Source of the DNA: Patescibacteria group bacterium
GTDB taxonomy: Bacteria; Patescibacteriota; Minisyncoccia; JAHISW01; Tagabacteraceae
Direction of reading: 5' to 3'
Length of the DNA stretch: 57,171 nucleotides
NCBI GenBank assembly: GCA_042577045.1
Contig: JBHPEK010000003.1
Span: 1 to 57,171, forward strand
Each line of letters opens with the position of its first letter. Position 1 is the stretch's first letter. The notes beneath the pieces are model-generated. The model did no database searches and was not told the origin of the DNA. It saw only the letters and a program-made list of their open reading frames with translations. A program made the position numbers and the translations under genes. This document shows, in pieces, positions 11,044-51,377 of this stretch.

Positions 11044-11084
11044 AACAACTCCCCCTTTCAGTTTTTAAGCTACATTAGTTTAAA

Positions 11085-11114
11085 CAAAGAATAGCACCGA
11101 AGTGCTATTCTTTG
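11085..11114 (-). terminator. Hairpin CAAAGAATAGCAC-CGAA-GTGCTATTCTTTG
   Basis: Perfect 13-bp stem in the intergenic region. Confidence 0.5.
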
Positions 11115-11174
11115 TCAACACAAACCCTTTGCTAGAGAAAATAAAAACCCCGATATTTCTATTGGGGCTTGTTC

Positions 11175-11224
11175 CATCTGTGGGAGGCCCTGAGAGAGAT
11201 ACTATCTCTCTCAGCACACAGATG
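11175..11224. repeat. Composite nested palindrome (outer CATCTGTG/CACAGATG, inner TGAGAGAGATA/TATCTCTCTCA)
   Basis: Read directly. The left end resembles the CTGTGGGA REP stem. Confidence 0.6.
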
Positions 11225-11408
11225 CCCAAAAACGCCCTATTCTAGGAAAATATAGGCGTGTTTTCCTAGAATAAGCTAAAAAATGCCCGCCTCTCTTCCT
11301 TAGACATCTGCACGATACTCGGTTTCGTGTAGTGTCGGCGGGTGGCAAATTTCTTTCCAAAAAAATATCCAAGTATGCCGGCAATTAGTATGTATAGGTA
11401 TTTCATCT
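11225..11408. repeat. ~185-nt dispersed repeat, copy 2
   Basis: See 9466-9650. Confidence 0.85.
11266..11406 (-). CDS. Small hydrophobic/basic peptide, 46 aa (MKYLYILIAGILGYFFGKKFATRRHYTKPSIVQMSKEERRAFFSLF)
   Basis: Hand-translated paralogue of 9508-9648. Confidence 0.45.
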   Translation of the reverse strand: MKYLYILIAGILGYFFGKKFATRRHYTKPSIVQMSKEERRAFFSLF

Positions 11409-11455
11409 TTTTTATTTTACCAATTTTTGTATCAATTTAACAATCGAACCCCTTT

Positions 11456-11480
11456 CTGTGGGAAGTCCGACTTCCCACAG
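11456..11480. repeat. REP-like palindrome CTGTGGGAAGT-CCG-ACTTCCCACAG
   Basis: It has the same CTGTGGGA...TCCCACAG stem ends as the three palindromes around the RAYT gene at 20.3-21.1 kb. Confidence 0.7.
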
Positions 11481-11542
11481 ATACAGTGGGCGCAGAAACA
11501 CAAAAAAAATCCGCGAAGATCCGATCTCCGCGGGATATTGTT

Positions 11543-16702: not shown

Positions 16703-16715
<13 letters not shown>
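16687..16715 (-). other. 3' arm of the 23S processing stem (pairs with 20109-20137)
   Basis: 29 positions pair with 2 G-U wobbles and 1 mismatch when aligned by hand. Confidence 0.7.
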
Positions 16716-20108
<3,393 letters not shown>

Positions 20109-20122
<14 letters not shown>

Positions 20123-20137: not shown

Positions 20138-20286
20138 ATTGCTAAATTATCAAAGTTCTCTTAAGGATGTTCAAAATAAAAATCCGCCTTCCAAGGAAAG
20201 CGGCATCTAGAAACTAGACATGATAAAATCTATCCGCTTTCTTTTTCTAAAACTTTTAATATTTCTCGCATAATTTAAGTGTTTTT

Positions 20287-20314
20287 ATTATAGCTATACC
20301 TAAAAATAATGCAA
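20287..20314 (-). promoter_or_regulatory. Candidate sigma-70 promoter for the 23S-5S unit (TTGCAT-16 nt-TATAAT)
   Basis: Hexamers read on the minus strand, about 165 nt upstream of the 23S 5' end. Confidence 0.4.
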
Positions 20315-20337
20315 GGGCATAAACACAAATCTTCATT

Positions 20338-20362
20338 CTGTGGGAGATTGGATTTCCCACAG
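20338..20362. repeat. REP-type palindrome CTGTGGGAGAT-TGG-ATTTCCCACAG (REP1), 6 nt after the RAYT stop
   Basis: Read directly. It has one stem mismatch relative to REP2. Confidence 0.85.
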
Positions 20363-20368
20363 ATACTA

Positions 20369-21025
20369 CTATTCCATCAACAACTCCCTTAATTCCTCGA
20401 ATTTGTTTTTTGCTTTGTCTTTTACGCAACTTTTCAAAAATTCTTCATATTCATTATAGTTTGTAAGAGGCGTCCATTTGTATTGCTCAAGAAACTTTTT
20501 GGCCTTTTTCCAGTCCTTTACCCCTTCTTCTTTCCACCTTAACTCAAAAAGATCTAAGGGGTTTAAGTAAATATATTGTTTCAAATAATTTAAATATTCA
20601 TCTTTATCTATTAAAATTGCTTTAAACCTACCTTGAAAAAGCGAACCACTTCTTTCATGTTTTTGATTAAAATAAAGGGTAAAGCCGATTCCCAATTTCT
20701 GCATAAAATCGGAAATTCCTTTTTCTTCTAGTTGCTCGAGAATTAAATGGAAGTGATTGGGCATTAAACAACTACAATGTATTTTAATAACTGGCTCTCT
20801 ATCCTCAGCTTTTATTCTGTGGGAGATTGGATCTCCCACAGAAACCATTCCATCTTCCACGTTTACTCGACGAAAAAGATTTATTGAGGAGTTCTTGTCA
20901 TTGAAATCTCTAAGACTAAAAAGAAAACGATGATAATCCTTGTCGTCCATGAAAATATCACGTTTATCCACTCCACGATTAAAAACATGATAAAAATGGT
21001 TATTTGCAAATTGAAGTCTTTTCAT
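20369..21025 (-). CDS. Y1 HUH transposase, IS200/RAYT-like (REP-associated tyrosine transposase family)
   Basis: It has YHVFNRG, the HUH motif MPNHFHLIL, GSLFQGRFK and the tyrosine motif QYIYLNP. It is flanked by inverted palindromes. Confidence 0.8.
   Translation of the reverse strand: MKRLQFANNHFYHVFNRGVDKRDIFMDDKDYHRFLFSLRDFNDKNSSINLFRRVNVEDGMVSVGDPISHRIKAEDREPVIKIHCSCLMPNHFHLILEQLEEKGISDFMQKLGIGFTLYFNQKHERSGSLFQGRFKAILIDKDEYLNYLKQYIYLNPLDLFELRWKEEGVKDWKKAKKFLEQYKWTPLTNYNEYEEFLKSCVKDKAKNKFEELRELLME
20817..20841. repeat. REP-type palindrome CTGTGGGAGAT-TGG-ATCTCCCACAG (REP2), in frame inside the RAYT ORF (encodes SVGDPISHR)
   Basis: Perfect 11-bp arms. It maps to codons 62-70 of the ORF. 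Confidence 0.9.
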
Positions 21026-21053
21026 TATTTATATTGTACACCAATTTTCATTT

Positions 21054-21078
21054 CTGTGGGAGATCCAATCTCCCACAG
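21054..21078. repeat. REP-type palindrome CTGTGGGAGAT-CCA-ATCTCCCACAG (REP3), 29 nt upstream of the RAYT start
   Basis: It is the exact reverse complement of REP2, so its orientation is inverted. Confidence 0.9.
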
Positions 21079-21125
21079 AAACCTATTTATTTATTGGTAA
21101 ATATAAAACCCGCCAATGGCGAGTT

Positions 21126-21332
21126 TTATATAATTATCATTCTGTAAGCTTGTACTATATGTTTCATTGCAGAAAACAAATGGATCTTTACCATTTTTAT
21201 GTTTCCTCTACGAAAATGTTTAACGGCAGACATAGAAAAAATTAAAACAGCATCAATATGAAATACTGGGCCAACATATTTCCCAGTTAAACAATAATTC
21301 CTAAAAACATACATGTGCAATTTATTTAACAT
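21126..21332 (-). CDS. Hypothetical small protein (68 aa)
   Basis: AAGGAG lies 5 nt upstream of the ATG, and an imperfect hairpin follows the stop. Confidence 0.4.
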   Translation of the reverse strand: MLNKLHMYVFRNYCLTGKYVGPVFHIDAVLIFSMSAVKHFRRGNIKMVKIHLFSAMKHIVQAYRMIII

Positions 21333-46449: not shown

Positions 46450-48048
<1,599 letters not shown>

Positions 48049-48117
48049 ATACTACCCCGATCTTGCGGGTCGGAGTAAAAAATCTTACACCACATTGAGA
48101 ATGGGTAAGATTTGAAT

Positions 48118-50573: not shown

Positions 50574-50608
50574 TTGTGAACACCGGGAGTAACACCGGGA
50601 GTTATCAT
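50574..50608. repeat. 35-nt direct repeat TTGTGAACACCGGGAGTAACACCGGGAGTTATCAT, left copy
   Basis: Identical to 51343-51377 in the same orientation. It contains an internal tandem AACACCGGGAGT x2. Confidence 0.9.
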
Positions 50609-50611
50609 AAC

Positions 50612-51313
50612 CTACTCTAAAAAACATATCTCTGAATCAAAATTTTCTTGAGCCCTCATGCTCCAATGTTTAATCTCATTTAAAAAATCCTTGGGTTTAG
50701 AATGATAAGTTCCTCCAAATCCATCATCAATAAATTTTCTAATTAAAGGATTTACAATGCCCGATTTAGTAAATATTCCAAGGCTTGACCATTGATACTC
50801 TTTAAGAAAATTTTTGGCGTTTGTCCAGTCCATAATCTCTCCTTCCCTCCATCCTAAATCAAAAAGGTCAAGCGCATTTCCATGAATATATGTCATAATA
50901 TGACTTGCTTGATTATCAAAAAGCATTGGCACCCCCTTAAAACGACCTTGAAAGAGACAACCTTTGCGATTATATTTTGTATTAAAATATTTAGCAAAAC
51001 TATTACATGTGCGTTGCATAACACGCGATATACCGTTTTCTTCTAGCTGTTCGACTAAAACATGGAAATGATCCGGCATCAGTATTAGAGCATAAAATTT
51101 AACCAACGGCTTTCCGTTGTTTAATATTTCACCCATGCGAACTGTAAATAAATCTCGACGCCAATTAACAGGTAATTGGGCAGTAGTGTTTACGGCAAAA
51201 AGTGTTTTCAGAAAATAAACACAATCTTGTTCCTTTATAAAAATTTTCTTACCCTCTACGGAACGATTACAAAGATGATAAATTTCATTGTTAACAAGTT
51301 CAAATTTTCGCAT
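50612..51313 (-). CDS. Y1 HUH transposase, IS200/RAYT-like, second divergent copy
   Basis: It has YHLCNRS, the HUH motif MPDHFHVLV, GCLFQGRFK and TYIHGNAL. It is collinear with the 20369-21025 protein. Confidence 0.75.
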   Translation of the reverse strand: MRKFELVNNEIYHLCNRSVEGKKIFIKEQDCVYFLKTLFAVNTTAQLPVNWRRDLFTVRMGEILNNGKPLVKFYALILMPDHFHVLVEQLEENGISRVMQRTCNSFAKYFNTKYNRKGCLFQGRFKGVPMLFDNQASHIMTYIHGNALDLFDLGWREGEIMDWTNAKNFLKEYQWSSLGIFTKSGIVNPLIRKFIDDGFGGTYHSKPKDFLNEIKHWSMRAQENFDSEICFLE

Positions 51314-51342: not shown

Positions 51343-51377
51343 TTGTGAACACCGGGAGTAACACCGGGAGTTATCAT
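51343..51377. repeat. 35-nt direct repeat, right copy
   Basis: See 50574-50608. Confidence 0.9.

Follow-up and report, generated by a model that had tools for sequence, protein, structure and literature searches.

To our knowledge, nearly all known systems that pair a repetitive extragenic palindromic (REP) sequence with a RAYT enzyme come from Proteobacteria, and the mechanism by which REPs are copied has yet to be settled. The locus reported here comes from an ultra-small Patescibacteria group bacterium and consists of a RAYT-like gene, RAYT-A, with three copies of one short palindrome: one on each side of the gene and a third in frame inside the coding sequence, at a position that recurs in related genes. 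It is found in a 57,171 nt stretch of DNA (GenBank assembly GCA_042577045.1, contig JBHPEK010000003.1, positions 1 to 57,171, forward strand), termed the window, which is contig C3 of a 579-kb, 24-contig genome of approximately 37% G+C that is 81% complete. The homologues and relatives found are Patescibacteria.

The closest described systems are the REPtrons, represented by YafM (4ER8) and by the RAYTs of Stenotrophomonas and Pseudomonas (PMC2817692, PMC3479197, PMC8266576, PMC5581495). Shared with these are a Y1 HUH enzyme with one catalytic Tyr, inverted cognate palindromes that border the gene, dispersed copies of the palindrome, and the co-occurrence of enzyme clade and palindrome family across genomes. 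The perfect short palindromes found here resemble group 3 REPs. However, the present locus carries a cognate copy within the coding sequence at a conserved position, and there is no GTAG/CGTC tag; the 5′ flanks GTAT, ATAT, GTTT or TTTT pair with 3′ ATAC/ATAT as an extension of the palindrome. The genome has 8 divergent paralogues in 0.58 Mb with private families of 6–13 copies each, whereas REPtrons display one gene and hundreds of REPs. RAYT-A is 218 aa long with a Trp-rich C-terminal extension, compared with 165 aa for TnpA-REP. The REPtron features absent here are the GTAG tag, the single-copy, vertically inherited habit and the NCBIfam equivalog score.

Elements of the IS200/IS605 group (IS608, ISDra2, IS200 TnpA) share the enzyme fold and a coding sequence bordered by subterminal hairpins that are read as single-stranded DNA. 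The unit described here does not qualify as an IS200/IS605 element: identical multi-copy elements are absent, and no two paralogues exceed 78% identity. It also has the same perfect palindrome at both ends instead of distinct imperfect left and right ends, and it displays gene-free dispersed hairpins as well as the internal copy.

Intragenic REPs and the Rickettsia palindromic elements (PMC3733652) are short palindromes found in frame in intact genes, in linkers and loops, housekeeping genes included. The present case differs in that the host gene encodes the presumed mobilising enzyme, the position is conserved family-wide and the copy co-evolves with the flanks; in addition, the RAYT gene and GatA show little or no net gain in length. 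A first-pass annotation of the window had taken the internal copy to be undescribed. This holds for a REP inside a transposase gene, which is not mentioned in those parts of the RAYT/REPtron literature retrieved by term searches, but in-frame REPs in other genes are already recorded by Di Nocera et al. 2013 (PMC3733652). Full-text literature searches for REPs in Patescibacteria or the Candidate Phyla Radiation (CPR) gave no paper.

The three-copy locus and its enzyme

The pattern CTGTGGGAGATNNNATCTCCCACAG was searched across the window with up to 3 mismatches and with 100 shuffles as control. There are exactly three matches (20338, 20817 and 21054) against a shuffle expectation of 0.00, and all three have the form CTGTGGGAGAT-NNN-ATCTCCCACAG, here termed type A. 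These copies, like the gene (20369..21025), are assigned to the minus strand. The upstream copy (21054..21078) is perfect, lies 28 nt 5′ of the ATG and is part of an extended perfect palindrome at 21051–21081. The internal copy (20817..20841), also perfect, extends to 20815–20843 and takes up codons 20816–20842. The downstream copy (20338..20362) has one mismatch (ATTTCCC) and is situated 6 nt past the stop codon and approximately 220 nt upstream of the 23S rRNA gene. With the flanking T/A, the perfect palindromes are 27–31 nt long. The loops on the plus strand are TGG downstream, TGG internally and CCA upstream; the flanking copies are thus mutually inverted and the internal copy is oriented like the downstream one.

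The first-pass annotation had described much of this layout, and the pattern search bears out the palindrome 6 nt past the stop, the inverted flanking copies and the third perfect copy, translated as SVGDPISHR, between the N-terminal block and the HUH motif. The upstream copy was placed correctly, at a distance given as 29 nt that is in fact 28 nt. The RAYT/REP-type arrangement also stands, with a Y1 HUH enzyme, inverted cognate flanks and dispersed copies, and the element is indeed repeated in the genome, with 7 type-A copies and 13 copies of a sister type B.

The internal copy reads S62-V-G-D-P-I-S-H-R70. It is found between YHVFNRG (residues 12–18) and the HUH motif H91-F-H93 (20747–20755, minus strand), 21 codons before the latter. 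As RNA the copy shows a 13-bp stem, and a 101-nt stretch gives −30.6 kcal/mol (z = −3.8).

Between the upstream hairpin and the start codon is TGTACAAT (21033..21040, minus strand), an extended −10-like box (TGnTAnAAT) with a presumed promoter role. Similar boxes are TGTGTATAAT, TGTATATATAAT, GGTATATAAT and TGTGTATACT; the box is kept in 7 of 7 close-clade loci, and its position relative to the upstream hairpin is conserved in all of them. Because the box lies between hairpin and ATG in all seven, the upstream hairpin likely occupies the −35 side of the promoter. A consensus promoter and terminator scan around the RAYT-A gene yields 7 hits as compared with 5.7 in shuffles and is uninformative; the promoter assignment therefore rests on the box conserved in the seven loci.

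RAYT-A has a score of 31.4 bits with Pfam Y1_Tnp (PF01797; threshold 23, E-value = 2.4e-7) and thus belongs to this superfamily. Residues H91, H93, Y151 and N155 are invariant in 35 aligned homologues. Tyr151 (20573–20575, minus strand), within YIYLNP, is the presumed catalytic residue. An AlphaFold model based on the 35-sequence alignment reaches a mean pLDDT (predicted local distance difference test) of 81, and model and alignment together display the RRM-like fold with the HUH motif on the central strand and a single catalytic Tyr on the following helix. The closest fold match in the PDB is 4ER8, the E. coli TnpA-REP with a REP hairpin (E-value = 2e-5, TM score 0.65, root-mean-square deviation 3.5 Å). 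IS608, ISDra2 and IS200 TnpA follow, and every one of the top 25 PDB matches is a TnpA-REP or an IS200/IS605 TnpA. Sequence searches of the PDB with the RAYT-A protein and with the 35-sequence profile gave nothing meaningful; only the fold search placed the protein. The NCBIfam model REP_Tyr_transpos (NF047646) gives 42 bits and an E-value of 7.9e-11, below its cut-off of 80. RAYT-A is related to, yet outside, this curated equivalog.

In the model, the palindrome-encoded residues 62–70 fall in the least confident stretch (pLDDT ~60). This linker joins helix 28–40 and a small beta-hairpin to strand 80–87, ahead of the HUH strand at 91–98.

The internal copy in related genes

The genome contains 8 RAYT-like paralogues, on contigs C1, C3, C4 and C14, with a maximum pairwise identity of 78% and no recent duplicate. 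Related genomes have 0–9 such genes, and thus the RAYT load is high and very uneven. There are at least 7 palindrome families with approximately 51 elements in total. For five of these families, copies stand on both sides of a paralogue. The paralogue closest to RAYT-A is RAYT-B (C1:50600–51253), with 78% identity. Its upstream and internal palindromes are of type B, GGGAAGTC-S-GACTTCCC, versus GGGAGAT-YSR-ATCTCCC for type A, and the in-frame type-B copy, translated AVSVGSPTSHIV, is situated at exactly the codon used in RAYT-A. From type A to type B the inner stem shows paired compensating changes (GAT/ATC to AGT/ACT). The downstream copy of the C1 paralogue is a different palindrome, and a type-C palindrome sits after its stop codon. 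In a further paralogue, C1:14471–15214, the gene is bracketed by another palindrome, and an in-frame copy of it, read as NYRDPISIV, is found just past the Tyr helix.

Homologues at E-value <1e-10 number 3333. In nearly all of those with 55–78% protein identity, the close clade, the peptide S-V-G-x-[PSR]-x'-S-[HN]-[KR] is found at one alignment column. In 25 homologues the codons for x and x' vary together as reverse complements (D/I, S/T, N/I, H/M and Y/I). The three-hairpin layout recurs in the DNA of five loci from four other genera (L001, L003, L004, L087 and L088). In each, the stem variant is private to the genome and common to two or all three copies, e.g. the outer stem CTGTTGGA..TCCAACAG of L088 is present in three of three. 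The downstream copy of L001 is a different palindrome. The internal copies of L087 and L088 have a T-G pair on the sense strand, still paired as RNA. Only the inner stem varies across the close clade; outer stem, codon phase and flanking residues stay constant. Synteny of the orthologues between genera is absent and the gene neighbourhoods differ: the RAYT unit of the window is directly upstream of the 23S rRNA gene, and orthologues are found between other genes (rpsF-ssb-rpsR/ychF; glmS/secD).

Of 131 homologous genes, 104 have a hairpin of 10 or more pairs in the flank. In a test of cognate matching, run on two independent sets of distant homologues, the 21-nt core of each gene's flank palindrome was searched in the gene interior at ≥90% match. 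Set 1 comprised GTDB genomes and the paralogues of this genome; set 2, used for replication, consisted of metagenome contigs with relatives of at most 53% identity. The gene's own flank palindrome was found in 25 of 59 genes of set 1 and in 18 of 50 of set 2, and palindromes of other loci in 5/708 and 0/600 comparisons, respectively. Overall, an internal cognate copy is present in approximately 40% of more than 100 related genes. The 45 best internal matches fall mostly into one interval: 38 are located 16–29 codons before the HUH motif, five at 77–80 codons after it, and two at +14 and +23. Six genes, among them the paralogue at C1:14471, use the site 77–80 codons past the motif.

The median linker from the YH block to the HUH motif is 68 residues long in genes that hold an internal copy and 65 in genes that lack one, a difference of 3 residues. 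Linkers as short as 61–62 residues still hold a copy, and across the family the interval is 58–79 residues irrespective of the palindrome. Because linker lengths are near-equal with and without the copy, the palindrome appears mostly to fill a pre-existing linker.

Presence of the copy was mapped on a protein tree built after removal of the linker columns. It requires 19 state changes versus 31.7±2.2 for shuffled states, and none of 300 shuffles was as low. Presence of the internal copy is thus inherited, with repeated loss or gain. Its codon phase is non-random and follows clade and peptide class. In the close clade, where two genes have the same residue the codon is also identical in 0.80 of cases inside the palindrome and 0.56 elsewhere. 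In some distant homologues (L090, L139 and L124) two inverted hairpins make up the in-frame element, a doublet of 38–42 nt with 18–19 pairs that encodes 14–15 residues; a REPIN-like pair can thus also reside inside a gene.

Enzyme and repeat also occur together across genomes. Eight genomes of the same family were scanned with the pattern CTGTKGG-N11-CCMACAG and with the reversed pattern as control. The five genomes with an A/B-clade RAYT carry 4–19 palindromes each. The three genomes that lack one show no palindromes, bar one non-palindromic chance match, and the reversed pattern gave 0 everywhere.

Copies of types A, B and C are found in frame in other genes as well: in a GatA gene, the identity of which was confirmed against solved GatA structures, and in NifS/IscS-like, glycosyltransferase-like and lamin-tail-like open reading frames, names given by reading the translations only. 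One further copy is at the end of a small open reading frame. The GatA copy of this genome is at C9:8725–8749. The GatA palindrome is found at one codon, after D-x-T-S, in this genome and two others (G005 and G003), each with its own genome's stem variant. It brings almost no net gain in length relative to Aquifex GatA (3H0L), approximately one residue, at a site that is length-variable among relatives. The GatA copy tracks the genome variant, and any homogenising process would therefore be general and not RAYT-specific.

The linker after D-x-T-S is hypervariable in one family (L106–L112), with the palindrome in three genera, short tandem nucleotide repeats in two others (L111 and L112) and unrelated sequence in the rest. 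Repeat DNA seems to land, or to be tolerated, at this site.

Neighbouring features and other repeats

The RAYT unit is parted from the upstream membrane-protein gene by a terminator-like hairpin at the end of that gene, AAAACCCGCC-AAT-GGCGAGTTTT (21101..21131, minus strand), recognised by inspection of the sequence alone. On the other side, the downstream hairpin is directly followed by the ATG of a 26-codon hydrophobic open reading frame (20256–20337). This frame overlaps with a TTGCAT-16 nt-TATAAT box, close to consensus, that lies upstream of the 23S rRNA gene. The 23S rRNA gene (16705–20117) contains a group I intron at 17734–18017 and is 26 kb from the 16S rRNA gene (46451–48049), i.e. 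the rRNA genes are unlinked.

An ATG directly follows approximately 10 of 27 hairpins of types A, B and C, often as ATGAAR. That these are real gene starts is unsupported for the cases examined; the ATG may just reflect the extended palindrome ...CACAGAT plus G.

The second paralogue in the window (50612..51313, minus strand; 233 aa) is 38% identical to RAYT-A and has no cognate palindromes. It is flanked by identical 35-nt direct repeats at 50574–50608 and 51343–51377, which contain the tandem 12-mer ACTCCCGGTGTT x2; two further tandem 12-mer cores are found on contig C17 (6535 and 9150). The direct repeats may be a non-palindromic counterpart of the REP. A 10-bp hairpin in this paralogue, about 10 codons before the HUH motif, was considered as a decayed copy and rejected, as the flanks hold no cognate copy.

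A dispersed type-B palindrome, cognate to RAYT-B, is found at 11456..11480, clustered with a type-C element between genes. This intergenic region (11044–11542) holds three different palindromes and is like a small cluster of the bacterial interspersed mosaic element kind. The type-C element (11178–11221) is composite, with an outer CTGTGGGA...CACAG stem around a CTGAGAGAG...CTCTCTCAG hairpin, and the singleton palindrome CCGCGAAGATCCGATCTCCGCGG is at 11511–11533.

Origin and role of the internal copy

The reading we favour, and consider somewhat probable, is that of a REPtron-like unit in which gene and internal hairpin are inherited together and copy correction keeps the latter matched to the flanking ones. 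The unit would comprise the gene for a RAYT-type Y1 HUH single-strand DNA nuclease and three copies of its own 25–31-nt perfect palindrome, one abutting a promoter-like box, one some 21 codons ahead of the HUH motif in a presumed surface linker, and one past the stop. The internal copy would not be a recent insertion, because the closest paralogue and orthologues from four other genera have it at the same codon, and approximately 40% of distant homologues have a copy in the same linker. Copy correction between the hairpins could proceed by template switching or gene conversion, or the enzyme itself could exchange the strands. A variable, poorly ordered linker would let the protein accommodate the nine residues that the palindrome encodes. 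Analogy to TnpA-REP (PMC3479197, PMC8266576) suggests that the enzyme recognises these hairpins. The DNA of the gene and its mRNA bear the presumed substrate hairpin, and negative feedback on a potentially genotoxic nuclease is therefore plausible, as is a regulatory role for the internal and promoter-side copies.

Several points weigh against this reading. Approximately 60% of the homologues are without an internal copy at ≥90% match, and the tree requires at least 19 gains or losses; the copy is therefore dispensable. The pairwise codon statistics and the cognate test are uncorrected for shared ancestry. The structural placement of the insert depends on a region of the model with pLDDT ~60. 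In one genome (G007) the variant AAGTT of the RAYT locus is found, among the pattern matches, only at or next to the locus, which fits local homogenisation and is silent on function. Binding, cleavage, copy correction and regulatory effect are all steps that we infer. Finally, a palindrome that re-inserted again and again into one permissive linker could look as if it had been inherited in place.

The last point leads to the main rival, which we rate as rather unlikely: the enzyme, preferring to act in cis, would repeatedly and independently place new copies of its current hairpin near and within its own gene. Only in-frame copies in the one or two linkers able to take nine more residues would persist, so that a common position would be a sign of tolerance and not of inheritance, and the copy would have no effect on fitness. 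Palindromes do enter coding sequences in this genome, as the GatA, NifS-like, glycosyltransferase-like and lamin-tail-like copies show. The second site 77–80 codons after the HUH motif and two further sites in set 2 are also as expected from repeated insertion, as are the 19 or more state changes, and according to PMC8266576 REPs cluster near tnpA-REP in some REPtrons. However, repeated additions of 27 nt are not seen in the linker, which differs by only 68 versus 65 residues and holds copies even at 61–62. Neither the strong clustering of presence on the tree, nor a close clade in which outer stem, phase and flanking residues stay constant while the inner stem changes, is what independent insertions would be expected to leave.

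An unlikely alternative is that the internal copy is a selected autoregulatory site. Here the enzyme would recognise the internal hairpin in the displaced DNA strand or in mRNA and, together with the promoter-adjacent copy, throttle its own synthesis, with selection keeping the copy cognate. The match of internal copies to their own flanks and not to those of other loci agrees with this, and so do the conserved synonymous stem sites, the upstream copy abutting a −10-like box in 7 of 7 loci, and the strong RNA stem, in which the T-G pair of L087 and L088 is still paired. TnpA-REP is, according to PMC3479197, tightly self-inhibited by other means. But approximately 60% of homologues, and 5 of this genome's 8 paralogues, lack the copy or have it in decayed form, and the GatA copy likewise tracks the genome variant, where autoregulation cannot apply. 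A route by way of mRNA is further weakened in that HUH enzymes bind DNA hairpins.

A more speculative proposal, which we regard as doubtful, is that of a self-referential cassette. The in-frame hairpin would be a protected archive of the substrate, because it lies inside a gene under purifying selection. From it the promoter-side, terminator-side and ultimately the dispersed copies would be regenerated, by the enzyme or by template switching, while recognition of the site in the cassette's own DNA or mRNA would limit enzyme production. If this is true, enzyme specificity and hairpin sequence are physically coupled and inherited as one unit, which would explain the coexistence and divergence of dozens of private enzyme-hairpin pairs in tiny genomes.

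The first-pass annotation had proposed that a REP entered this one gene in frame, in one fairly recent event, and lengthened the protein by 8–9 residues relative to an uninterrupted paralogue. This is now very improbable. The paralogue in question (50612–51313) is indeed shorter in the interval, 66 residues versus 75 in RAYT-A (74 in that annotation), a difference of nine, and the internal copy matches the consensus perfectly. The comparison does not bear out an insertion: the paralogue belongs to another subgroup with a different kind of flanking repeat and is only 38% identical, and the interval varies from 58 to 79 residues regardless of the palindrome. Nor is the event particular to this gene, since segment and palindrome are found at the same column in the 78% identical paralogue and in four other genera, with diverged inner stems, and a palindrome is present in approximately 40% of distant homologues. 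The peptide segment in orthologues, named at the outset as evidence against an insertion, is thus found there, yet each orthologue carries its own palindrome variant at that column; the peptide is shared because the palindrome is also present, in a genome-specific form.

It is scarcely credible that selection for an S-V-G-x-P-x-S-H-R loop maintains the segment with the DNA palindrome as by-product, since, although the motif can be recognised throughout the close clade, residues 2 and 4 of G-x-P-x-S co-vary exactly as reverse-complement codons, the same nucleotides occur in the non-coding flanks and in unrelated genes, the peptides of distant homologues are wholly different with each mirroring its own flank palindrome, and model confidence in the loop is low.

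Inheritance in place with copy correction remains our preferred reading. The Patescibacteria display a phylum-wide RAYT-like family that carries its own hairpin in the reading frame, at a fixed place, and the hairpin changes in concert with the flanks. With three copies within 750 bp and thousands of loci, the family would offer a natural record of hairpin homogenisation. HUH nucleases serve as DNA-tagging tools, and thousands of matched enzyme-hairpin pairs may allow the recognition rules of these nucleases to be read. The unit is also a testable candidate for self-limitation of a genome-cutting enzyme. Finally, streamlined CPR genomes tolerate in-frame repeat DNA within essential genes.

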